Below the pieces are notes generated by a model. That model made no database searches. It was given only the letters and a program-made list of their open reading frames with translations, and was not told the origin of the DNA. A program made the position numbers and the translations under genes. This document shows positions 1,717 through 18,311 of a stretch of 64,000 bases of DNA, piece by piece. The stretch spans positions 131,593 to 195,592 of the forward strand of contig CAZWSC010000096.1 in assembly GCA_964636385.1 (NCBI GenBank). The letters are read 5' to 3'. This DNA comes from an uncultured bacterium. GTDB lineage: Bacteria > Eisenbacteria > RBG-16-71-46 > CAIMUX01. The number at the start of each line of letters is the position of its first letter. The first letter of the stretch is position 1.

Positions 1717-4272
1717 TCATCCGGATTCAGTCCGCCTCAGTCCCTGACGCGCCGGGGTCCATCCCGGGCGCATCCGAAGCGCCATCCGGAACCAGTATCG
1801 CGCCTCGTCAGGTCTGCCCAGGGCTTCGCAGGTGAGGCCGAGATTCAGGACCGGTTCCGGCAGGCCCGGGGCCGTCTCGTGGGTCTCCCGAAACGCAGCC
1901 AAAGCCTCCTCCAGGCGGCCCATGTCGCGAAGTGTTACTCCCCGGTTGTTCCGTATCCATGGGTCTGCCGGATCGAGCTCGGCGGCGCGATCGAATGCCG
2001 CGAGGGCCTCCTCCAGCCGGCCGCGGGCGTGCTCGGCCTGGCCCAATCCTGCCCATGCGTCCGGGAGGTTTCGAGACCATTCCAGCGCGCTGCCATAAGC
2101 TTTGGCCGCCGCTTCTGGGCGATTTCGGAAGAGGCTCATGTCACCCCAGAGGACCCTCAGAAGCCCGGGATCCTCGTGCAAGAGGAAAGCGCCTGACAGG
2201 TACTCCGCAGCCCGTGGAGTAGCCCCGGCGGCCTTCAGCTCGAGTCCCGCCAGGTTTGCGAGGAACTGACCCGGCCTGATGAGGCGCCGCAGCGCCTGAC
2301 GGGAGACTGCGACTGCCGCAGCCGGCCCTTCGCCCTCCATCGCCGTGCGGAACAGCAGGTCCCAATGCACCTGCCGCAGAGGCCTGCGCTCGACGAGCCT
2401 GGCGGATGCTGCCAGGGCCTGTGGAGGTGGAGCAAGCCGCGCGGAGATGACATCCAGACGCTCGGCGCAGGCTGCGCCTCCGGGAATCGATGCCAGGCGA
2501 AATGCCGCCTCCTCCCGCCGTGCCTGGGTGGACAGGCCGGCGCCTTCCATGGCATGTACCTGGGCGATATCCCGCTCCAGGCGGATCACGGCGCTGTGAG
2601 TCGTCAGTGGATCATCGGGGAGGCGGTCGCGCAGCAGATCAGCCCGTCCTTCCAGGAACGCGGCCATGATCAACGCAAACACCATGAACACGAGAAGGAG
2701 CGGAGTATCGGGCCTCCTCATGCGCAGGGTCATGAGCGCCCCTGACAGTGCGAACAGAGCCGCGATCGCAGTGAAGGCAGGCCCCATGGGCAGAAGGGCC
2801 GGCGCCAGCGCGTACCCGGCAAGGACCAGCAGGGCAGTCCACCTGCGTGCGGCGTGAAACGGCAGCAGGGTTGCCAGGGTCATCACACCAGTCGCCGCGT
2901 CGCCCCTGCTGTCCTTCAGATCCTTGGCCGTGAACCCCAGCGTAATCCCCGCCAGCAGCAGCCACAGCACCCGGCGGGGGAACGCCCAGGCTGCCGCCTC
3001 TCCAGCCACCAGCGCGAACCCGGTCAAGGCCGAGAGCGCAGTCAGCGCTGCCAGGGTTGCGGTCGATATCCCGGGGATCCTCTTCAGGCGCAAAGGCGGA
3101 GCGGAGTAGAGCCAGGAGAGAAGGAGACACGCCGACATCAACAGCAGGGCCGGATAGGAGACGATCCAGGCGAGGTACAGGGCGATGCCGCAGCAGACGC
3201 CGGCCCACGTGCGGACGTGCCCATGTTCCAGCAGGCCGCTGACCAGGGGCCTTCCGGGATCGTTGATGCGGTCCGCCCCCGAGTCATGGAGATCGTTCCA
3301 GGCGATCGCCGCCAGGACAGCCGAGACCATTGCGGCCCACAGGGCGAGGACTGCGGCCCAGTCCAGCGGGTTGGCGAACAGTCCGGGCAGGTAATCACGG
3401 AAGACGAGGTACCCGAGGTAGCAACCCAGGGGAGCCACGGCCGAGTAGTGCAGCACCCGCGTCCAGGGAAGCCGGCGCACAACCGGGACGAAGAGGTCGG
3501 GGTGGAGCCTCCAAAGGAATACCGGGAGAGCGGCCAGGGCTGGAACAGCGAGCGAGACTGCCAGTCGCCTGCTCTCGCCTGTGACCAGGCCGCCCATGCG
3601 GAAGACCGACTCGTATGCCGGGATCTCCACCGGCTGCCATGGCGCGGCGAGGCGGGCCGCCAGCGCAGGCCACATCCCCAGCACTGCCGAGATCACGTAC
3701 ACGCCCAGCGCGGCGCCGACCGCGCGCAGGAGCGCGGCCGGGATCCCCGCACCGGGCACTCCGGGGGTGGCGCCCGGGGGAGCGCCGAAGGTGCGCGATC
3801 CTGCCCTGCTCCGCAGTGCAGTCCAGGCGTACAGTGCGGCCAGGAGGCAGGCCAGCGCGATCTCGACCCGCTGCCCCGGGCTGACCTCGTCAACAGCCCT
3901 CAAAGGGTTCCAGAAGTGGATGAGAAAGCCTCCGGGTCCGGTCAGGTAACGCAGGTCATACCCCGGGCCACCGGAGACGACACCGTCGATGACCGGCGCC
4001 AGAAGAAGAACGGCGTACGCGAGAGAGACGGCGCGCACCACCCTCGCCATCGGCCTGCCGGACGTCAGGTGAATCCAGAGTGAAAGAAACAGGAAGAGAG
4101 CCAGATAGAAGAACGGGAAGTGCAGGACCATCATGGCGAGGGAGACATCTTCCCTCCAGTCGAAGCCAAGCATGCCGGGCCGTTCGAGAACCCCTTCCAG
4201 AAGGTTCCGCAGGACAATCCAGGCCAGCAGGAGCGCCATCCAGCTCCATGGAAGCTTCCTGCCGCCCTCCAT
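1717..4272 (-). CDS. Large polytopic membrane protein with C-terminal TPR repeats (O-antigen-ligase/DUF2723/TMTC-like architecture)
   Basis: About 14 or more predicted TM helices followed by about 5 TPR-like repeats (AWAGLGQAEHARGRLEEALAAFDRAAELDP...). Start placed at ATG 4272 (MEGGRKLPWSWMALLLAW...) because a strong terminator hairpin (4438-4465) sits between this position and the ORF-track start at 4491. Start uncertain. Confidence 0.6.
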   Translation of the reverse strand: MEGGRKLPWSWMALLLAWIVLRNLLEGVLERPGMLGFDWREDVSLAMMVLHFPFFYLALFLFLSLWIHLTSGRPMARVVRAVSLAYAVLLLAPVIDGVVSGGPGYDLRYLTGPGGFLIHFWNPLRAVDEVSPGQRVEIALACLLAALYAWTALRSRAGSRTFGAPPGATPGVPGAGIPAALLRAVGAALGVYVISAVLGMWPALAARLAAPWQPVEIPAYESVFRMGGLVTGESRRLAVSLAVPALAALPVFLWRLHPDLFVPVVRRLPWTRVLHYSAVAPLGCYLGYLVFRDYLPGLFANPLDWAAVLALWAAMVSAVLAAIAWNDLHDSGADRINDPGRPLVSGLLEHGHVRTWAGVCCGIALYLAWIVSYPALLLMSACLLLSWLYSAPPLRLKRIPGISTATLAALTALSALTGFALVAGEAAAWAFPRRVLWLLLAGITLGFTAKDLKDSRGDAATGVMTLATLLPFHAARRWTALLVLAGYALAPALLPMGPAFTAIAALFALSGALMTLRMRRPDTPLLLVFMVFALIMAAFLEGRADLLRDRLPDDPLTTHSAVIRLERDIAQVHAMEGAGLSTQARREEAAFRLASIPGGAACAERLDVISARLAPPPQALAASARLVERRPLRQVHWDLLFRTAMEGEGPAAAVAVSRQALRRLIRPGQFLANLAGLELKAAGATPRAAEYLSGAFLLHEDPGLLRVLWGDMSLFRNRPEAAAKAYGSALEWSRNLPDAWAGLGQAEHARGRLEEALAAFDRAAELDPADPWIRNNRGVTLRDMGRLEEALAAFRETHETAPGLPEPVLNLGLTCEALGRPDEARYWFRMALRMRPGWTPARQGLRRTESG

Positions 4273-4437
4273 GAGGCCTAGAAGCCCGCCACCGCCCCCC
4301 GGGTCGGCTGCTGGAGCGTGTGCGCCATCCAATGGTTCGGTGTCATCCCTTGTCTGCACGACAGCTGTGTGTCTCCTCCCTCGTCTGCCCGCGGGATGGT
4401 TGGGATCCGCCTCCCCAGCCGGGTTCCACAACGAAAA

Positions 4438-4465
4438 CGCCCCGGGGAGGAATACCTCCCCGGGG
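4438..4465 (-). terminator. Intrinsic terminator-like hairpin downstream of the S8 peptidase gene
   Basis: Perfect 12-bp GC-rich stem GCCCCGGGGAGG / CCTCCCCGGGGC with a 4-nt loop. On the minus-strand transcript it is followed by GUUUUCGUUGUGG. Confidence 0.55.
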
Positions 4466-4502
4466 CATTTTCCGGAAAACGTGACTTCCAATCCAGTGAT
4501 TA

Positions 4503-6869
4503 CTACCTGCTGATCACCACCTTGGTCGTCGTCTTGTGCTCGCCTGCCTGCATGCGCGCGAAGTAGACGCCGTCCGCGACGCGTGCACCGGCCTGATCGC
4601 GGCCTTCCCAGGTGACGAAGTAGCTGCCTGCCTTCTGGCCCTTCGAGACCAGGCTGCGTACGAGACGCCCCTGAACGTCCACGATGTCGAGCTGGACCGG
4701 GCCGGAGAAGCCGGCCGGCACCTGGTAGTAAAGCCGGGTCATGCCCGAAACGGGATTCGGGCTGGCGCGGATCCCGGCAACTTCCGCCAGGCTCTCGGGA
4801 ACGGAGGACTGGTCATCCTCAGGCCAGTTGGCAAAGGCGCCGTTCATGGACACTGCGAAAGGCTGCGGGCCCTGCGGCACGTTCTGCCCGATGACCTCCA
4901 CGGTCCAGACACCCATCTGCGGGTTGGCGACCCTGACACCTTCTTCCACGTTGAGGTTGTCGTGGCTGCCGCCGGTGACCGAGAAGCCGCCGCTGAAGAC
5001 GTTCCCCTTGTACTGCTGGCCACCAGGTGCGGTTACCAGCAGGTCCAGGTTGTTCACCAGCTTGATGCCGCTTCCGGTAGCGCCCGGATAGTCAGTCCAT
5101 ACGAGGGTGATCACGAGGGGCTCGGCCGAGCTGTCGATCTCGAACTCATCGCTCCAGACCTGGCCTGTGGTCAGGCCCGGGGTGACGTCCTCAGCCATCA
5201 GCTCGCGGGTGTCGCCGGAGAAGTAGAGGGAGTTGTCCATCAGCATCCGGCCCCAGCCCTCGTCGTTGTTCGGGATGTTCGGAGTACCCATGTCAGCCGT
5301 GCTGGATATCAACACCGACTTGACCAGGGCTGCGCTGGGAGAGATCGGATCGCCTCCGGACTCGCCGAGGGGGTAATAGCCGTCCTCGAAGTACTGGCGC
5401 ACATTCAGGGCCATTCCGGCAACCGCGGGGGTGGCCATGGAAGTGCCCTGGAAGGGGCTTCCCTGAACATTGCAGGTGGGCGAGGGCGGGTTGCCGGTGT
5501 GGTTCTGCGCCGAAAAGATGAAGGTCGGAGACTCTCCGCCGGGGGCGGTCATGGTCGGCTTCAGACGTCCGTCCGCCGCAGGTCCACGGCTGGAGTAGCC
5601 GGCCATGGTGTCCTGCTGCGGGGCCTGGCGTGTTGAACCGACGGTGACGCAGTTCTTCGCCGTGCCGGGTGTTCCGACTGTGCCGCTGCCCGGGCCGCTG
5701 TTGCCCGCCGCGAAGACGATCAGGAACTCCTTGTTTTCCCACATCGCCCGGTCCACATCCCTGCTCATGGCGTCATACGAGTTGCTCGTACTACCCCAGC
5801 TGTTGGTGTGGACGCGTGCGTTCAGGCCGTAGGAGGCCACAAAAGCACCGTAAAGACTGGACGGGATGTTGACCGCACCAGTAGTGCATGACCAGGAGTC
5901 ATCTTCCCCGACGTCCTGGACCGTGAACTTGGCCTTGTAGGCCATCCCGTTATGGTCGTAGTTGCCCGGGTTGATGAACGACTGATCCCCCGCCATCGTT
6001 CCGGCAACATGTGTGCCGTGGCCCGGGCTGCAGCCGTCGTAGGGGTTGCCGCCGGTCAACGAGTAGTCGATCACCTTCCTGTGATCCGGGCCCGGGGGGG
6101 CATTGCCGACATCGCGGAACCAGCAGGAGTTGTAGTCCACACCGCTGTCCATGATTGTCGCGATCTGGCCTTCGCCGTTGATGCCGCGATCCCACAGCGG
6201 GGTTGACCCGCTGGTGTTCGACTGCACGACCCACTTGGTGACGTGATTCCAGGTCCTGTACTCGGGTCGCTCCTCGATCCACCATACCTGCTGCATGCGG
6301 GCGAGTTCGGGGATCAGCTCTTCAGGAGCCTGTACCAGCAGGCGGCGCACGTGGCCGTCATCGTGGACCTCGGGTACCTGGCCTCCCATGAGCCGGATTG
6401 CCTCGGCGACGCCATGTGGGTCCTCGAAGACCTGGACCAGCAGCGTGCGGAAGGGATCGGCCAGGCGCTGAGGCCCCAGCTCATGCAGCCCTATCATGGG
6501 GCAGATCTTGTATGCGGGATGGAAGTGGCCCATCCAGCGGACCTCGGGCAGGTTCCGGACCCTGCTGTGGGCCTGCGAATCCAGGCCAACGATGAATGCA
6601 TAGTCCGGGATGTATCCGTACAGGGTGGCCCCGGCAGACTCCAGGCTCTGCTTCCATTCCCCGGTGATGGGGGAGTCGGCCTGGACAAGGAAGTACCCGA
6701 AATCGGCGGTGTCACGGGTACCGAAGGTCAGGTCGTCGGGCAGCTCCGGTTCTCCCAGCACGGGATCGAATCGATAAGCTTCGAGGTCGATAATCACGGC
6801 TTGAGCTGAAGCCGCGGTCATGATCAGGAAAAGCAACGAGAGCGTGGCGAGAGTGATCCTCCTCAGCAA
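4503..6869 (-). CDS. Subtilisin-like serine peptidase (S8) with signal peptide and C-terminal FlgD/Por-type (T9SS-like) sorting domain
   Basis: Signal peptide MLRRITLATLSLLFLIMTAASAQA. S8 His motif GHGTHVAGTMAG and Ser motif GTSMATPAVAGMAL. C-terminal about 80 aa match the CTD pattern (LDIVDVQGRLVRSL...GVYFARMQAG...KVVISR). Confidence 0.88.
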   Translation of the reverse strand: MLRRITLATLSLLFLIMTAASAQAVIIDLEAYRFDPVLGEPELPDDLTFGTRDTADFGYFLVQADSPITGEWKQSLESAGATLYGYIPDYAFIVGLDSQAHSRVRNLPEVRWMGHFHPAYKICPMIGLHELGPQRLADPFRTLLVQVFEDPHGVAEAIRLMGGQVPEVHDDGHVRRLLVQAPEELIPELARMQQVWWIEERPEYRTWNHVTKWVVQSNTSGSTPLWDRGINGEGQIATIMDSGVDYNSCWFRDVGNAPPGPDHRKVIDYSLTGGNPYDGCSPGHGTHVAGTMAGDQSFINPGNYDHNGMAYKAKFTVQDVGEDDSWSCTTGAVNIPSSLYGAFVASYGLNARVHTNSWGSTSNSYDAMSRDVDRAMWENKEFLIVFAAGNSGPGSGTVGTPGTAKNCVTVGSTRQAPQQDTMAGYSSRGPAADGRLKPTMTAPGGESPTFIFSAQNHTGNPPSPTCNVQGSPFQGTSMATPAVAGMALNVRQYFEDGYYPLGESGGDPISPSAALVKSVLISSTADMGTPNIPNNDEGWGRMLMDNSLYFSGDTRELMAEDVTPGLTTGQVWSDEFEIDSSAEPLVITLVWTDYPGATGSGIKLVNNLDLLVTAPGGQQYKGNVFSGGFSVTGGSHDNLNVEEGVRVANPQMGVWTVEVIGQNVPQGPQPFAVSMNGAFANWPEDDQSSVPESLAEVAGIRASPNPVSGMTRLYYQVPAGFSGPVQLDIVDVQGRLVRSLVSKGQKAGSYFVTWEGRDQAGARVADGVYFARMQAGEHKTTTKVVISR

Positions 6870-7122
6870 GGGGTGCCTCCTTTCCTCTCCACCGGACGGC
6901 CCTGTGGCCGCAACGCAGGCGCAGGAATGGCGTCCGGAGTCCCCCGACGCCTTCCGGCAGACGGCAAACCACTTCCGGGACAGCGGAGTACTGCCCGTTG
7001 GACAGGATATGCGCAGGCCCGGAAGCGCAAGAGAATGACACGGTTATTATACAACGGCAGACCGGTGCGGTCAAGTTGGCCGTCAGCACAGGTGATGGTT
7101 GACCGCCTGCGATTCGGCCCGG

Positions 7123-8682
7123 CTAACCCCCTACGGCCCGCAGCAGGTCTGCGTTGGTCCTGTAGGTGTCCATCATCTTCAGGAGGCCGAGCATCGCTTC
7201 GTCCGCCTTCCTGTCGGCCAGGAACCTTCGCAGCAGATGGAGCCTGCTTATCGCATCCACCGGGTAGAGCTTCTCCTCCTTGCGGCTGCCGCTGGCAAGG
7301 ATGTCCACGGCGGGAAAGATCCTCTTGTTGGCGAGGTCTCTTGAGAGAACGATCTCGGTGTTTCCGGTCCCCTTGAACTCCTCGAATATCACCTGGTCCA
7401 TTCGTGATCCGGTGTCCACCAGGGCAGTGCCGACTATGGTGAGGCTGCCGCCGTGCTCGATCTTCCGCGCGGCGCCGAAGATCCGCCGGGGGCCGTACAT
7501 CGTGCCCGCGTCGAGTCCACCGGAAAGGGTGCGCCCCGAGCTGTCGGAGAAGACATTGTAGGCGCGCGCCAGGCGGGTGATCGAGTCGAGCAGCAGCACC
7601 ACATCCCTGCCTGCCATGACTTCTTCAGCCACACGGATCACCGTCTCCTCGGTGGTGCGGATATGCGTCTCGGGGGTCATGTCATTGGAGCTGGCCACAA
7701 CCTCGCAGTCGACGCTGCGGCGGAAGTAGGTGACCTCCTCCGGCCGCTCATCCACGAGAAGGACGACCACCTCGACATCCCTGTGATTGCGCAGGATCGC
7801 CTGCGCCATGGCCATGAGCAGCAGGGTCTTTCCCGCCTTCGGCGGAGAGGTGATCAGGCAGCGCTGACCCCGTCCGATCGGAGCGATCAGATCGATCACG
7901 CGGGTGCTGTAGCCATCCGGTTCGTTCTCCAGGATGAGCCGTTCATGTGGATCGATGCTGACTCCCCGATGGAGTGTTTTCAGCTCGTCCAGCAGACTGC
8001 GCTTCCGGCCGGAGTCGCGGCCCCCGTATCTGCCCCGGTGTCCCCGCCCGTTCATCCTGGATCGCGGATCGGACCTGTCCCGCCCTTCCTGCCTGCCGCG
8101 GTGGTCAGGCCGTCCGCGTCCCGGTCCGCGTGACGGCACGTCGCCCCTGGAACGGCTGTCTACCTGTCCACGATGTCCCGCACCGCGGAGAGGGGACTGA
8201 CCGCGGCCGGCCTGGGCCCTGTGCGGAGGGCGGGTGCGGTCGTTGTCCCTGGTTCGCCCCTGGCGAAGCGGCCTCATTGCCGGCTTTCCGGCCTCCCTGC
8301 GGGCCGGCAGGCTGCGGTTGTTCTGATCGGACGGGGGCGGCCCCGTCCTGGCCTGCTGCGCATCGACCGGGCCGATCCAATCGCCCCCGTCCGCCGCGGA
8401 ATCGCCCGGGGCCGGCTTTCTTCTCGTTGTCCGCGGGCGAATGGTCCTTGCCGGGCCGTCGGTCCCGGTGCCGGAATCCATGGCCGGCCCGGGGCGAACC
8501 TGCGGTTCGGGGTCCGTCGTCTTCCGTCCCCTGCTCCGTCGGGACGCGCCCCCTGTCCGGCCGGCCTTCCTCCCGGTCGTTCCTTCCGCCCGGCTGGGCT
8601 CAGTCCTCTTCTTCGATGCTGTCTTTCCGGCACGCGGAGTGCGCCCTGGTTTCTTCTCGTCGTCCGGTTGATCCTTGGACAT
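7123..8682 (-). CDS. rho: Transcription termination factor Rho with atypical N-terminus (RG-rich disordered segment instead of the canonical N-terminal domain)
   Basis: C-terminal 292 aa align to the Rho connector and ATPase: Walker A GRGQRCLITSPPKAGKT, LLDSITRLARAYN, Q/R loops GGLDAGTMYGPRRIFGAARKIEHGGSLTIVGTALVDTGSRMD, and C-terminus like E. coli Rho. Start placed at ATG 8682 (MSKDQPDDEKK...) because the ORF-track extension to 9339 overlaps trxA on the other strand. Residues 1-227 are Arg/Gly/Pro/Thr-rich with no OB-fold signature. Confidence 0.82.
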   Translation of the reverse strand: MSKDQPDDEKKPGRTPRAGKTASKKRTEPSRAEGTTGRKAGRTGGASRRSRGRKTTDPEPQVRPGPAMDSGTGTDGPARTIRPRTTRRKPAPGDSAADGGDWIGPVDAQQARTGPPPSDQNNRSLPARREAGKPAMRPLRQGRTRDNDRTRPPHRAQAGRGQSPLRGAGHRGQVDSRSRGDVPSRGPGRGRPDHRGRQEGRDRSDPRSRMNGRGHRGRYGGRDSGRKRSLLDELKTLHRGVSIDPHERLILENEPDGYSTRVIDLIAPIGRGQRCLITSPPKAGKTLLLMAMAQAILRNHRDVEVVVLLVDERPEEVTYFRRSVDCEVVASSNDMTPETHIRTTEETVIRVAEEVMAGRDVVLLLDSITRLARAYNVFSDSSGRTLSGGLDAGTMYGPRRIFGAARKIEHGGSLTIVGTALVDTGSRMDQVIFEEFKGTGNTEIVLSRDLANKRIFPAVDILASGSRKEEKLYPVDAISRLHLLRRFLADRKADEAMLGLLKMMDTYRTNADLLRAVGG

Positions 8683-9030
8683 CTGATTCACGAACGCTCC
8701 CTTCCGGCCCCGCCGGCACGTGCTGAGTTCGATAGGATTGAGATCTGTTAGGCCGGCACTATAGCATGGAGGCATGTGTACGGCCAGAAATGCAGGCCGG
8801 TTTAGAGTTGACGGCTGGCCGCGATCGACACCCCGGTCGGCCCCGGGAGCCCCCGGCCCGGAACACCTCCCGGTCGTGCCGGCGTCCTGATGTGGTAGAG
8901 TCTTTCGCACGCCCCGCCGACTCGCGCGGCATCGGGGCACTCGGATGGTCTGAAGACAGCAATCGATTCCGGAAGGTGTCCTCAGTGTGGCCTCCGGACT
9001 GGTGATCGATGCAAGGAAAGGAACACGGAG

Positions 9031-9351
9031 ATGGAACATGTGAACGACGCCGACTTTGCCGAGCGGATCAAGGCTGTGAAGCTCCCGCTGGTTCTGGACT
9101 TCGGTGCGACCTGGTGCGGCCCCTGCAAGAAGATCGAGCCCATTCTGGACGAGCTTTCCGGCGAGTACGAGGGCAGGGTGGAGTTCCTGAAGGTGGATGT
9201 GGGAGAAGCTCCCGAGACTGCCCGGTCGTATGGGGTCATGAGCGTGCCCACCGTCATATTCATGAAGTCCGGCGAGCCGGTGTACCGCTTCTCCGGGGTT
9301 CAGAGCAGGGAGAAGATTGTGCAGCTCCTCGGGGAACACTTCGGGATCTGA
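9031..9351 (+). CDS. trxA: Thioredoxin
   Basis: WCGPCK active site with typical thioredoxin length and flanking motifs. RBS AAGGAAAGGAAC upstream of ATG. Confidence 0.95.
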   Translation: MEHVNDADFAERIKAVKLPLVLDFGATWCGPCKKIEPILDELSGEYEGRVEFLKVDVGEAPETARSYGVMSVPTVIFMKSGEPVYRFSGVQSREKIVQLLGEHFGI

Positions 9352-14122: not shown

Positions 14123-15424
14123 ATGTTTCTACAGCCGATCAGGGAGGATCGCATGGGCCGTGGTGCCGTCTCGTCGCATGGAGGATGGTCATCGAAGCTT
14201 CCGGGGAGGGGGTCAATCAGGTGGAGACCCGGGGCGGTTTCGCTTCTCGTGTTCGCGCTCTGCTGCGCCGCTTCCTGTGGCGCAGACCGGGGGGAACAGC
14301 GTGAAGCCCGGGATATCGAGCCCGGGGAGCCTCTCTTTCTGTTCGTGGGAGCTCCCCTGCGGATAGATCCGATCCGCGCCGCATCCGCGATCCTTATCGA
14401 GCCTGAGACCAACGCCGTTCTGTACGAGCAGAATGCGCACGAGCCGAGATCTCCGGCGAGCCTGGTGAAGATCATGCTGGAGCTCGTGACACTCAACGAG
14501 ATCGAGGCCGGCCGGCTTTCCCTGGATGACTCGGTCGCCACTTCCGCCTATGCCAGCAGGATCGGGGGTTCGCAGGTCTACCTGGCGGAAGGGGAACGCT
14601 TCCCGGTAAGGGATCTGCTCAGGGCGGTCTCCATTCACTCCGCCAACGATGCATGCGTCGCCCTTGCCGAGCACATCACGGGATCCGCAGAAGGTTTCGT
14701 CATGCTCATGAATGCGACTGCCGATCATCATGGGTTGGAGGACACCCGATTCGCCAATGTGCACGGTCTGGACATCAACCCACAGGCGCAGAACGTGAGC
14801 ACAGCCCGGGACATCTCGCAGATGGGACGTGAACTGATCCGTTACCCCGGGGCATTGGAAAGATCCTCAACCGAGATGGCCCTCTTCAGGAACGGAGAGT
14901 TCGAGATGAGGAACCGCAACAGCCTGGTGGGCCGGTTTCCCGGGCTGGACGGGGTCAAGACCGGTTTCACGAACAGGGCCGGCCACTGCCTCTGCGCAAC
15001 GGCGGTGCGCAACGACATGCGTCTCATCTCCGTTGTGATGGGCGCCAACTCGAGCCAGGATCGCTTCAGGGAATCCGCGCGGCTCCTCTCCGCCGGATTC
15101 AGCAGTTATCTGCCGTACAGGTTCAGTGAGTTCGGAGACACCCTCGAGAGCTCTGTTGCGATTCCCGGAGGGAGTCCGGGTACCGTCGCCGCGATCGCCG
15201 ATCGCAGTGTGACGCTGCTGGTCTCCAGGCCCGACGAGCGCGACATCACAACTGAGTTTGTTCCGAGAACCGGTCTTGCCGCTCCGCTGGAGGCGGGCGA
15301 CACGCTGGGCATCTGCCTGGTGAGGTCGGGCGTAAACATCCTGGCTGAGATCCCGGCAGTGAGCCCCGAGCCTGTCGCCCGTACCGGCATCGGTCCTCTG
15401 GTCCGGCGCATCTTCGGCGGGTGA
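14123..15424 (+). CDS. dacA: D-alanyl-D-alanine carboxypeptidase (peptidase S11, PBP5/6-like), paralog 1
   Basis: SxxK (SPASLVKIM), SxN (SANDACVAL) and KTG (KTGFTNRAGHCL) motifs. Signal/lipoprotein-like N-terminus. Alternative ATG at 14153 has a better RBS (GGGAGGA). Confidence 0.85.
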   Translation: MFLQPIREDRMGRGAVSSHGGWSSKLPGRGSIRWRPGAVSLLVFALCCAASCGADRGEQREARDIEPGEPLFLFVGAPLRIDPIRAASAILIEPETNAVLYEQNAHEPRSPASLVKIMLELVTLNEIEAGRLSLDDSVATSAYASRIGGSQVYLAEGERFPVRDLLRAVSIHSANDACVALAEHITGSAEGFVMLMNATADHHGLEDTRFANVHGLDINPQAQNVSTARDISQMGRELIRYPGALERSSTEMALFRNGEFEMRNRNSLVGRFPGLDGVKTGFTNRAGHCLCATAVRNDMRLISVVMGANSSQDRFRESARLLSAGFSSYLPYRFSEFGDTLESSVAIPGGSPGTVAAIADRSVTLLVSRPDERDITTEFVPRTGLAAPLEAGDTLGICLVRSGVNILAEIPAVSPEPVARTGIGPLVRRIFGG

Positions 15425-16701
15425 GCATGACAAGGCCGATCCGCAACAACATGGATGGCATCGTGTCCGGCTGCAGACGCGGAGCAAGCCGTGCCTTCGA
15501 GTGTGGAACCACCGTGATCCGTTCGGGTGGTCTGGCTGTAATGCTGATTGCCGTGGCTGCCGCCCTTGTGTGCGTCCGGACATCGGATGCTCCGGCCTAT
15601 CCCTCGCGTGCCGGTGCCGCGCCGACGATAGTTCCTACCTGCCGCGGAGACTACGCCGCGGCAATCGTCGTGGAGGTGGAGACCGGCACGGTGCTGTCAT
15701 CGAGGAATCCGGATCTGGTGCGCTCTCCGGCCAGCCTGACAAAGCTGATGACCGGCCTTCTGGTCCTGGAGGCGATCAGGGAAGGCCAGGTCTCGCTGGA
15801 GGACTCGCTGGTTACGCCGAAGGAGGTCAGGGCGACATACGGATCAAGGGTTCATCTGTGGGTTGGGGAGAGGGTATCCATACACGATGCCCTTGCCGCG
15901 CTCTTCATCGCATCCGGAAACGATGCGGCCACCGCCCTTGCCTGTCATCTTGGCGGATCCGAGGAGGCGTTCGTGCGAAGGATGAATGAGCGTGCGGGCG
16001 AACTGGGGATGTACAGGACTCACTTCACGAATCCACATGGCCTGGACAACGGCCGGCACTCGACCAATGTGTCGACTGCCAGAGACATGGCGAGACTGTC
16101 CCGCGAGCTTCTGCGGCATCCCCTGGCCATGGAGATATCGGGAATGGAGACCCACACCATCCGCGGGACGCAGGCCATACGCAACACGAACAGGCTGGTC
16201 GGGCGGCTTCCCGGGGTGAACGGATTGAAGACGGGTTACACATCCAGGGCCGGCTTCTGTCTCGCCGCCGCAGCCGAGCGTAATGGCCTGCGGATCGTTA
16301 CGGTGCTGCTGGGCTCACCTGCGGGGAACACTCGCTTCAGCGAAGCGGCAGGTTTGATTACCAGGGCGTTTACCGAGTACCAGGTGGTTCCCATGGTGCG
16401 CGAAGGGCAGGACCTGGCAAGGATGCTGATGGTGCGCAACGGTTCTCCATCCCGCGTTCGCCTCATGGCCGGATCGGATGTCAGCGTTCTTCTATCCACT
16501 GAGAACAGGCTCGAGGTGCGCCTGGAGGTCGACGCGCCGCCGCTTGTGCATGCCCCTGTCAGGCCCGGCGCGAGGCTGGGTCACGTCCGGGTCTTCATCG
16601 CCGACAGCCTGGCGGCGGAAGGGCCTGCGGTGGCCGCGTCCCATGTCCGCAGGGCCGGCTTACTGGACCGGCTCGGCCGGCACTTCGGGCTGGGTGAGTA
16701 G
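15421..16701 (+). CDS. dacA: D-alanyl-D-alanine carboxypeptidase (peptidase S11), paralog 2
   Basis: SPASLTKLM, SGNDAATAL and KTGYTSRAGFCL motifs. Overlaps the stop of paralog 1 (GTGAGCATG). ATG 15427 is an alternative start. Confidence 0.85.
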   Translation: MSMTRPIRNNMDGIVSGCRRGASRAFECGTTVIRSGGLAVMLIAVAAALVCVRTSDAPAYPSRAGAAPTIVPTCRGDYAAAIVVEVETGTVLSSRNPDLVRSPASLTKLMTGLLVLEAIREGQVSLEDSLVTPKEVRATYGSRVHLWVGERVSIHDALAALFIASGNDAATALACHLGGSEEAFVRRMNERAGELGMYRTHFTNPHGLDNGRHSTNVSTARDMARLSRELLRHPLAMEISGMETHTIRGTQAIRNTNRLVGRLPGVNGLKTGYTSRAGFCLAAAAERNGLRIVTVLLGSPAGNTRFSEAAGLITRAFTEYQVVPMVREGQDLARMLMVRNGSPSRVRLMAGSDVSVLLSTENRLEVRLEVDAPPLVHAPVRPGARLGHVRVFIADSLAAEGPAVAASHVRRAGLLDRLGRHFGLGE

Positions 16702-16712
16702 GTTGCCCGGGC

Positions 16713-18311
16713 ATGAGTTTCGAGCCGATGGTCCGCGGGATCGGCAATGGGCCGGGATCTGAGGCAGCGGAGAGGATGGTGCCCTTGCGCGTCGAACTGG
16801 CCGGGTTCAACATCGATTCCGCGGTGCAGGATGAAGCCCGCCGGCATCTCGGGCGGTTTGCCGATCTGCCGCCATCCGGCGACCCTGAGGTGGAGAGCAT
16901 CCGCCGGGACGTGCAGGCCTTCCTGGCGCAGGACTGCTGGACTCCCGAGATCCTCGCGGCGGCTTACGCCCGGATCAGCCGCGATCCCGCCGCCGTCGGA
17001 GAGCTGCGCGCGAAGGCCCGCTCCGAGGTGGACAGGGCGCGCAGGAGCAATGAGACGATCGTCTTCGGCATGGGCCACAGCTCCGTGGCCGAGCATGCCG
17101 TCTTCAACTTCGATGTCACCGGATTGTCCCGCCTTGCCGTGGAAGTACTGGAAGGCCGTCGGCTGGCCAGCTTCACGGAGAAGTCACAGCGTTACATCCT
17201 GCTGGAGGAAGACTGGGTTCTGCCCGGGGAGATCCGTGGGACCGCCTGCGAGGCACTCTTCCGCGAGACCCTGGAGGCGCAGTGCAGATTCTACAGCGAG
17301 GCTTACGAGCGGCTCACGGGCCGTGCCGACGCTGATGAAGCCGGCGGGGCTGCCAGAGCGACGGAGGTGGCGAAGACTCGCCGCGAGATCGAAGGATCGG
17401 CCAGGGAGGATGCCCGCTACGGCCTCAGCCTTGCCACTACTGTTCAGCTCGGGATGACGGTGAATGCCCGGACTCTCGAGTCCCTGATCCGCGGGTGCAG
17501 GGCGCATGAGCTCTCGGAGTTGCGATCCCTCGGCGATGCCTTCTACGGTGCGTCAGGCGGACTGGCTCCCTCCCTGATCAAGTACACGGATCCCTCACCC
17601 TATCTGACGGGGGCAAGACCCCGACTGGCCGGCATTGTTGAGAGGGCCGGTTCTTCCGGCTGCGAGGATGCGCACGACGCGGCCGTCCGACTTGTCTCAT
17701 GCACGCCGGATGCCGACCGGGTACTCGCGGGGGCGATCATCTACTCCTTCGGCCATGGTGACTACGGGGCATCGATGCGGAAGGCGCGGCAACTGTCGCA
17801 GAGGGAACTGGAGGCGCTGGTCCGGGCTCATCTCGACCTGCTGGGTCCGCACGATGCGGTCCTGAGGGAGTTCGAGCATGTCGAGCTGACGTACGATCTG
17901 ACTGTCAGCGCGGCATGCTATGCGCAGCTCAAGAGGCACCGGATGGCCACGATTACTGCGCAGAACTACGATCCCTCCCTGGGCGTCACGATTCCCGACT
18001 CATTCCTCGATGCAGGACTCAACGAACCCTTCCTGGAGCTGGTGCGGCGGACCGAGGAGTGTCGCGAACGGATCGCGAGGGAATCACAGCCGGCGTCCGC
18101 GTACATTCTGACGAATGCCCACCGGCGGCGCGTGCTCCTGAAGGTCAACGCCCGCGAGCTTGTGCACATATCGAGATTGCGGGAAGACAGGCACGCCCAG
18201 TGGGACATCCGGCGCGTGGCGGCTGCGATGATCTCGCAGGCGCGGGGATGCATGCCCCTGACGATGTCGGCCGCCGGCGGCAAGGATGCATTCGGGCAGG
18301 CTTCGGCGTGA
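16713..18311 (+). CDS. thyX: Flavin-dependent thymidylate synthase ThyX-like protein with two tandem ThyX domains
   Basis: Domain 1 has GHSSVAEHAVFNFDV...EGRRLASFTEKSQRY and TVNARTLESLIRGCRAHE. Domain 2 has FEHVELTYDL...KRHRMATITAQNY and KVNARELVHISRLREDRHAQWDIR. Both match the ThyX RHRxxSxxxxSxRY and NAR...H..W.. signatures. N-terminus PLRVELAGFNI resembles mycobacterial ThyX (PLRVQLIA), so ATG 16776 may be the true start. Confidence 0.7.
   Translation: MSFEPMVRGIGNGPGSEAAERMVPLRVELAGFNIDSAVQDEARRHLGRFADLPPSGDPEVESIRRDVQAFLAQDCWTPEILAAAYARISRDPAAVGELRAKARSEVDRARRSNETIVFGMGHSSVAEHAVFNFDVTGLSRLAVEVLEGRRLASFTEKSQRYILLEEDWVLPGEIRGTACEALFRETLEAQCRFYSEAYERLTGRADADEAGGAARATEVAKTRREIEGSAREDARYGLSLATTVQLGMTVNARTLESLIRGCRAHELSELRSLGDAFYGASGGLAPSLIKYTDPSPYLTGARPRLAGIVERAGSSGCEDAHDAAVRLVSCTPDADRVLAGAIIYSFGHGDYGASMRKARQLSQRELEALVRAHLDLLGPHDAVLREFEHVELTYDLTVSAACYAQLKRHRMATITAQNYDPSLGVTIPDSFLDAGLNEPFLELVRRTEECRERIARESQPASAYILTNAHRRRVLLKVNARELVHISRLREDRHAQWDIRRVAAAMISQARGCMPLTMSAAGGKDAFGQASA

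Follow-up and report, generated by a model that had tools for sequence, protein, structure and literature searches.

A Rho-family helicase with a basic N-terminal tail and no detectable OB-fold in a contig of an uncultured Eisenbacteria lineage

We analyzed a stretch of 64,000 nucleotides (referred to below as the window) from contig CAZWSC010000096.1 of an uncultured bacterium of the Eisenbacteria (assembly GCA_964636385.1, positions 131,593 to 195,592), which carries on its minus strand a gene of the rho family. Canonical Rho has an N-terminal domain made up of a helix bundle and an OB-fold, the latter being the primary RNA-binding site, which recognizes YC-rich rut sites. The gene in the window encodes a selectively maintained Rho-family helicase of another build, in which a polycationic tail of ~225 residues, predicted to be disordered, is fused straight to the connector helix and a complete ATPase subunit. 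Comparison of homologous sequences indicates that this protein is not a one-off, being one member of a large monophyletic clade of Rho proteins without an OB-fold (OB-less Rho), found mainly in metagenome-assembled genomes (MAGs) labelled Candidatus Eisenbacteria. The clade, with its basic disordered tail, is a variant of known Rho that we did not find described in the literature searched.

Motor core and N-terminal region of the protein

The open reading frame (ORF) on the minus strand ends with the stop codon at 7123 and extends, without interruption, back to 9339, a maximal ORF of 738 amino acids (aa) in which the only Pfam match is PF00006. The NCBIfam models for Rho match the protein solely over profile positions ~128-413, that is, the connector and the ATPase; NF006886 reaches 380.8 bits against a cut-off of 315 on the ATPase alone, and TIGR00767 gives 367 against a cut-off of 509.45. 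When compared with PDB sequences using phmmer, residues 228-517 aligned to E. coli Rho 127-413, and likewise to the Rho proteins of Thermus, Thermotoga and M. tuberculosis. Moreover, a pairwise alignment with E. coli Rho (a sequence of 419 aa, whose length and alignment are consistent with the PDB matches) showed 48.9% identity over 284 residues, beginning at E. coli position 124 and residue 225 of our protein.

The same alignment showed that the Walker A and B motifs, the catalytic glutamate, the arginine valve and the arginine finger are all present in the core. Residues K181, K184, T185, D210, E211, R212, D265, S266, R269, G337, R353 and R366 of E. coli Rho are identical, the ATPase residues K181, K184, T185, E211, R212, D265 and R366 corresponding to K285, K288, T289, E315, R316, D369 and R470. 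L312 is the counterpart of E. coli L208, from which sensitivity to bicyclomycin is predicted. The Q-loop and R-loop of the secondary RNA-binding site differ from E. coli by K283R, T286S and K326R, variants also found in T. thermophilus Rho, and both loops (SGRTLSGG and TGSRMD) are invariant in the family. An AlphaFold2 model built from an alignment of 83 sequences is confident from residue ~243 onwards, and in Foldseek its core matches the C-terminal domains of E. coli, M. tuberculosis and Thermotoga Rho with a root mean square deviation of 1.5-2.0 Å over ~284 residues. Residues ~226-522 are thus a complete Rho connector and ATPase with the catalytic and RNA-translocation motifs intact; the initial annotation had recognized this from the last 292 aa, and the Pfam, NCBIfam and PDB matches, the motif alignment and the model all bear it out.

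Nothing comparable was detected ahead of the connector. Neither PF07497 (Rho_RNA_bind) nor PF07498 (Rho_N) matched the maximal 738-aa ORF even at E<=10, and the six frames of positions 7900-9030, translated with stops replaced by X, contained no Rho domain in Pfam; the search set beforehand for PF07497 upstream of the ATPase in any frame found none. A custom OB-fold hidden Markov model (HMM), built from E. coli residues 47-130 plus the matches to them, likewise gave nothing at E<=10 when all frames of the entire 64-kb window were scanned. Controls for sensitivity were run for both approaches: among 80 Rho loci drawn from GTDB species genomes, the custom HMM recovered the OB-fold in 76 (74 loci at E-values of 1e-20 to 1e-34, including a weaker pair at 2e-24 and 3e-23), and Pfam still picked up OB-folds down to 16-36 bits in other atypical, divergent Rho proteins. 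As for the helix bundle, AlphaFold2 predicts no helices before residue 226, in agreement with the missing PF07498 match. The earlier claim that no frame holds a helix bundle or an OB-fold is upheld by these results. The chance that an assembly error or a frameshift conceals a normal N-terminal domain is negligible, given the negative six-frame and custom HMM scans, the same architecture in independent assemblies from NCBI, ENA, JGI and Logan, and the codon-level comparison with a close relative described below; the comparison with related genomes, proposed at the outset as a check for such artefacts, thus shows orthologues in which the architecture is real and conserved.

The place of the missing domain is taken by a region of unusual composition. 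Residues 1-230 contain 20% arginine, 15.7% glycine and 11.3% proline, with a net charge of +32 and just 7% of the residues V, I, L, M, F, W or Y. The initial annotation had described residues 1-227 as rich in RGG, RGR and PRT with few hydrophobic residues; the Arg/Gly-rich, hydrophobic-poor character stands, with 24 RG/GR dipeptides and four RGR, while the region holds no RGG tripeptide at all. Structure prediction, which had also been suggested as a check, gave no secondary structure over residues 1-225 (block-mean predicted local distance difference test, pLDDT, of 39-58), so this part is predicted to be disordered; the Rho C-terminal fold follows, starting with the helix at residues 226-242.

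To examine the coding status of the tail we used the close relative just mentioned, a 95%-identical, 3.1-kb contig of GCA_036681025.1 (locus L001), which shares the same 522 codons with no insertion or deletion. Synonymous divergence (dS) is ~0.47-0.5 in both tail and core, and the ratio of nonsynonymous to synonymous substitution rates (dN/dS) is 0.45 in the tail versus 0.045 in the core. Among the six frames of the tail, the ratio of nonsynonymous to synonymous differences (pN/pS) is lowest in the annotated one (0.53; Fisher's test against neutrality, p=1.4e-5). Identity between both proteins climbs towards the connector, from 58-65% for residues 1-165 to 82% for residues 166-230, and GRxRKRxLL is the only tail segment that can be aligned across the subclade to which both belong (subclade A, see below). 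Taken together, the codon comparison indicates translation of the tail, with purifying selection acting on it in the annotated frame.

The position of the start codon was evaluated with the same pair of sequences. The initial annotation had proposed a 519-aa product starting at the ATG at 8682, a codon that reads AAG in L001; the GTG at 8691 is invariant between both sequences, as is a GGGAG box located 5 nt upstream, so that GTG 8691 and a product of 522 aa most likely represent the true start. For the identical protein, JGI likewise calls a gene of 522 aa (P0122), and NCBI calls one of 452 aa that begins at Met68 (P0001). Upstream of ~8700 the open frame is non-coding for rho, since it overlaps the divergent thioredoxin gene at 9031-9351 on the plus strand, as had been noted before for the extension to 9339. 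Other short blocks between 8697 and 8766 on the minus strand are also invariant, inside intergenic DNA that has otherwise diverged between the window and L001, and are possibly promoter and leader elements (Table 1); a consensus scan upstream of rho on the same strand found no full sigma-70 site and no clear -35 element.

An alternative to be weighed here is that the tail is untranslated, the true product being a core-only protein of ~285-310 aa initiated at an internal methionine. Several automatic gene calls have such a product, and database entries of 285-310 aa do exist (P0002, P0021 and P0024); the stretch has 72-75% GC, which lets long open frames arise by chance, and several overlapping ORFs are indeed seen; and the signal of GC content at third codon positions is weaker in the tail than in the core. 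Nevertheless, the frame is kept without an indel at dS ~0.47 with pN/pS at its lowest in that frame, the GTG and its Shine-Dalgarno box are conserved while the DNA upstream of them diverges, and an in-frame Arg-rich extension is present in every lineage, though its length and sequence vary. Furthermore, in the subclade A relatives L085-L092 the gene callers start rho at an internal methionine (286 aa; around positions 7700-8000 of the L085 locus) and place an out-of-frame ORF of 78-99 aa over the tail-coding region, where the correct frame encodes an RG-rich tail upstream of and in frame with the core; the lengths of 285-310 aa found in databases for this family are therefore truncations. We consider an untranslated tail very improbable.

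Table 1. Position of the rho-family gene, its domains and motifs, upstream elements and flanking genes in the window.
Feature	Position	Strand	Remarks
rho-family coding sequence	7123..8691	-	522 aa plus stop; stop codon 7123-7125
Basic N-terminal region, residues 1-225, predicted disordered	8017..8691	-	Occupies the place of the Rho_N helix bundle and OB-fold
Most conserved part of the tail, residues 166-225	8017..8196	-	RG/GR-dense, directly before the connector
Connector helix, residues 226-242	7966..8016	-	AlphaFold2 helix; equivalent to E. coli Rho ~127-140
RecA-type Rho ATPase/translocase core, residues 243-522	7126..7965	-	PF00006, NF006886, Foldseek, dN/dS
Walker A / P-loop SPPKAGKT, residues 282-289	7825..7848	-	K285, K288, T289 = E. 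coli K181, K184, T185; invariant in 83 homologues
Q-loop, secondary RNA-binding site, residues 380-394	7510..7554	-	SGRTLSGG vs E. coli SGKVLTGG (K283R, T286S)
R-loop DTGSRM, secondary RNA-binding site, residues 426-431	7399..7416	-	T427, S429, R430 = E. coli T323, S325, K326; invariant in family
Arginine finger R470	7282..7284	-	E. coli R366; invariant in family
Putative Shine-Dalgarno GGGAG	8701-8697	-	Invariant vs L001
Putative GC hairpin CCGGCGGGGCCGG	8716-8704	-	Invariant vs L001
Putative extended -10-like element TGCTATAGT	8766-8758	-	Invariant vs L001; candidate promoter element
trxA	9031..9351	+	PF00085; divergent from rho; conserved neighbour of OB-less rho in subclade A
S8 subtilase with C-terminal FlgD_ig domain	4503..6869	-	Pfam; downstream neighbour of rho

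The family of OB-less Rho proteins and its genomic context

A protein search among 5.8 billion proteins was carried out and the best 120 matches were examined; PF00006 was the sole domain in all 120 of those listed. Pfam detected Rho_RNA_bind and Rho_N in 0 of 83 aligned homologues, and the custom HMM found no OB-fold among 135 family members. In 79 of these members, 50 aa or more precede the core; the tails of these 79, 50-357 aa long, contain 15-32% arginine, carry a net charge of +7 to +34 and have a median of 7% hydrophobic residues. What the comparison shows to be conserved across the clade is thus the composition of the tail (Arg-rich, net positive, poor in hydrophobic residues), and not its sequence or length. 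Source names are sparse among the best 120 matches listed (Candidatus Eisenbacteria three times, Saccharimonadaceae once and "bacterium" once), and the OB-less loci L002 and L034 are labelled Eisenbacteria or Eiseniibacteriota.

Neighbor-joining trees of the Rho core, which included 74 canonical loci and 149 cluster representatives at 50% identity, grouped the OB-less set into one clade (bootstrap 89/100) with three subclades, A, B and C. The protein of the window falls in subclade A and displays the features that define the main clade: a basic disordered tail directly before the connector motif, (R/K)KR-LL--L--L(H/Q)-G-S-DP, no OB-fold, and grouping by its core. Three proteins outside the main clade, P0258 (L094, 2305-3402), P0313 and P0378 (L095, 8001-9098), also have a basic tail, of 70-100 aa, and no detectable OB-fold. 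While P0258 is a possible sister of the OB-less clade (63/100), P0313 and P0378 are nearest to canonical sequences and are therefore probably independent losses of the OB-fold; the architecture probably arose more than once. One of these three proteins comes from a low-GC organism in which rho lies between glmS and motAB.

Two other placements were considered and abandoned. A nesting of the OB-less clade within the "Group B/Type 4" paralogues appeared in one neighbor-joining tree with a bootstrap of 1/100, and the Myxococcales locus L052, considered as an intermediate because it was basal in the first tree, was not so in the second and was kept as an analogous case only. A profile scan of genome contigs with an alignment of the connector and P-loop returned mostly canonical Rho among the matches listed, which served as controls and not as a census; the same kind of scan queried with the single protein of the window gave no match.

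The gene order around rho in the window is shared within subclade A. In L001, L083, L084, L085 and L089 the OB-less rho has a thioredoxin gene on its upstream side, and L001 and L084 (the latter a 2.45-Mb contig; 59% identity over 789 aa) likewise have an S8 subtilase gene downstream of rho; the order in the subclade is a divergent thioredoxin, in some cases an aldehyde dehydrogenase, rho, and then an S8 peptidase or a bactofilin. Beyond subclade A no synteny was found, neither between distant OB-less loci nor between the canonical Eisenbacteria loci and the window. At canonical loci (L005-L082, from GTDB genomes) rho is followed by rpmE, often DUF1385, prfA and prmC, an arrangement present at 55 of the ~77 loci searched and spanning Actinomycetota, Bacillota, Deltaproteobacteria and others.

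A highly conserved canonical Rho resembling that of E. coli, in which all three Pfam domains are present, is likewise encoded in MAGs that bear the label Eisenbacteria or Eiseniibacteriota. This Eisenbacteria-type protein is represented by more than 120 clusters at 85-94% identity to that of locus L060; at two canonical Eisenbacteria loci, either prfA and prmC follow an rpmE situated ~2 kb downstream (L082), or YbbR lies upstream. We then searched for both rho forms in one genome. No contig or assembly was shared between six OB-less assemblies (GCA_036681025.1, GCA_030431975.1, GCA_020633975.1, GCA_020431765.1, VBOS01 and CALOCN01) and six canonical ones (including GCA_009612875.1, GCA_020847735.1, GCA_964609125.1, GCA_031360075.1 and JANMQY01), a sample far too small for a conclusion, nor was there any overlap between the best 120 matches listed for each form.

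Some other features of the window were recorded. In the gap that separates the rho stop codon (7123) from the S8 peptidase start (6869), on the minus strand, there is a near-consensus (11/12) sigma-70-type promoter, TTGACC-17-TATAAT (7046-7074), which suggests that the peptidase is transcribed independently of rho. A thyX-like ORF (16713-18311, plus strand) is unusually long, 532 aa, with two separate Thy1 domain matches, and may be a tandem-duplicated flavin-dependent thymidylate synthase. A 924-aa UbiA prenyltransferase fused to C-terminal TPR repeats is encoded at 1717-4491 (minus strand), and two adjacent genes for S11 D-Ala-D-Ala carboxypeptidases (PBP5-like) at 14123-16701 (plus strand). 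An Rfam search of the entire window gave no match.

Possible mode of action and alternative explanations

Given its intact motor, the protein would be expected to assemble into the usual hexameric ring and, through its Q- and R-loops and ATPase chemistry, to move 5'->3' along RNA. Six basic tails would then project from the ring face that OB-folds usually occupy. Drawing on the example of the Arg-rich insertions in the Rho of M. tuberculosis and M. luteus, and of the phase-separating region of B. thetaiotaomicron Rho, we propose that these tails may act as a low-specificity, electrostatic RNA-capture module, possibly forming condensates, which would deliver nascent RNA that is naked to the ring and so replace the sequence-reading primary sites. 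An OB-less protein could not read YC dinucleotides in the manner of E. coli Rho; the choice of targets would hinge on RNA accessibility, partner proteins or contacts with RNA polymerase, and the outcome, termination or RNA surveillance, would be set by the accessibility of the RNA and not by C-rich rut motifs. As a whole, this reading of an OB-less Rho motor with basic tails as its RNA-capture module has in our judgement about an even chance of being right.

Several observations weigh against it. The dN/dS of the tail corresponds to weak constraint; at none of the OB-less loci does rho stand in the rho-rpmE-prfA-prmC context; and the canonical Rho of Eisenbacteria-labelled MAGs may mean that the job of termination is already filled. 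The survey of Moreira et al. (2024, PMC11347177) reports that E. coli Rho without its N-terminal basic residues loses RNA binding, and it treats an OB-fold as a requirement of a functional Rho, so that a functional OB-less Rho would be unprecedented. Since the gene context is non-canonical and canonical Rho occurs in MAGs of the same label, we lean slightly towards a second, specialised Rho working beside a canonical one over a sole Rho. That a lineage within the Eisenbacteria-labelled group uses the OB-less protein as its only Rho, with RNA captured by a crown of polycationic tails and perhaps RNA condensates, is a tentative idea which we consider rather doubtful; if true, it would represent termination without a sequence-reading primary site, a natural experiment separating the motor from rut recognition.

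Among the alternatives, the least improbable is that the protein is an RNA motor derived from Rho which has given up transcription termination and acts as a general RNA chaperone, an R-loop remover or a partner of RNA decay or condensates. Its RG-rich tail would then do what the tails of RGG-containing DEAD-box helicases do in eukaryotes. The loss of the rut-reading domain with the translocase kept, a tail composition typical of phase-separating RNA binders and the deep divergence of a family with its own gene context all fit such a role. On the other hand, all the Rho-specific motifs are still under strong purifying selection and no neighbouring gene points to RNA decay, and we regard this explanation as unlikely.

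A second Rho subunit working only together with canonical Rho, either in mixed hexamers where the OB-folds are supplied in trans or by titrating or regulating the canonical factor, appears quite unlikely. It would agree with the canonical Rho present in MAGs of the same phylum label and with the location of the OB-less gene outside the ancestral rho context, and hetero-hexamers have been raised as a possibility for the "Group B" second copies of Rho (PMC11347177). However, both genes did not co-occur in one genome among the assemblies and best-120 lists compared above, and the OB-less cores are just ~52-55% identical to the Eisenbacteria-type canonical Rho, which argues against co-evolved subunit interfaces.

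Whichever role applies, the OB-less clade bears on how Rho is loaded onto RNA. The OB-fold primary site is treated as essential for the recognition of termination sites, and PMC11347177 defines functional Rho by that domain; a large clade under purifying selection without it suggests an alternative route to RNA loading, and would provide a ready test of rut reading versus RNA polymerase contacts or simple access to naked RNA. Annotation is affected as well, as gene callers truncate OB-less rho genes and pipelines name their products plain "Rho" because the NF006886 cut-off is reached on the ATPase alone.

Comparison with known types of Rho

The survey cited above (PMC11347177), with a dataset of 2730 RefSeq genomes, recognizes four types of Rho, all with the RNA-binding domain, and calls functional those proteins that combine RNA-binding and ATPase domains; it is unlikely that the genomes it sampled include these uncultured lineages. 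A 2025 review (PMC12360218) makes no mention of an OB-less Rho, and a full-text literature search for Rho in candidate phyla or Rho without an RNA-binding domain returned nothing relevant.

The canonical Rho of E. coli (Type 1 in PMC11347177) resembles the protein of the window in the connector, the ATPase, the Q- and R-loop residues and the fold, but has the helix bundle (PF07498) and OB-fold (PF07497) within E. coli residues 1-~125, both of which our protein lacks. The gene contexts are also different, rho-rpmE-prfA-prmC in the former and trxA-rho-S8 peptidase in the latter.

Type 2 Rho proteins, such as those of M. tuberculosis, M. luteus and B. thetaiotaomicron, share with our protein a long basic disordered segment N-terminal to the motor. 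The insertions in M. tuberculosis and M. luteus Rho, which are rich in arginine, are reported to raise the affinity for RNA (PMC11347177), and the disordered region of Bacteroides thetaiotaomicron Rho is reported to phase-separate (PMC11347177, PMC12360218). In Type 2 proteins, however, the segment lies beside a retained OB-fold, whereas in the window the disordered segment alone precedes the connector, which places the protein outside Type 2; the initial annotation had anticipated that known Rho insertions keep the OB-fold, in agreement with the 2024 survey.

The short or second copies of Group B (Type 4, subtype 2d, NF041509 paralog_Rho2) likewise have a reduced N-terminus, are often a second copy and sometimes have basic extensions; they differ in lacking the helix bundle only, the OB-fold being kept, and the NF041509 profile itself starts within the OB region. 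The protein of the window scores 323.5 bits with this model against a cut-off of 628 and matches only profile positions 82-359. With one Rho domain detected, it fits the operational definition of the single-domain "Rho-like" bin, whose sequences are treated as non-functional in PMC11347177 and are covered in its supplement.

The Rho of Myxococcales (L052, 4311-5738; P0268 family) displays a similarly basic, low-complexity tail, rich in Q, G and R. Its RNP1 motif GFGF is replaced by GQGW or similar, and in part of the family the OB-fold is at or below the detection limit of Pfam; a recognizable remnant of the OB-fold is nevertheless kept, unlike in the protein of the window, and the position of this group relative to the OB-less clade is unstable between the two trees. 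A likeness in overall design may also be seen outside Rho, in the eukaryotic RG/RGG-tailed DEAD-box helicases of the LAF-1/DDX3 type, which also join an ATP-driven RNA motor to a disordered tail, rich in Arg and Gly, with non-specific RNA binding; their motor is unrelated, a monomer of helicase superfamily SF2 as opposed to a RecA-type hexameric ring, with no homology to Rho.

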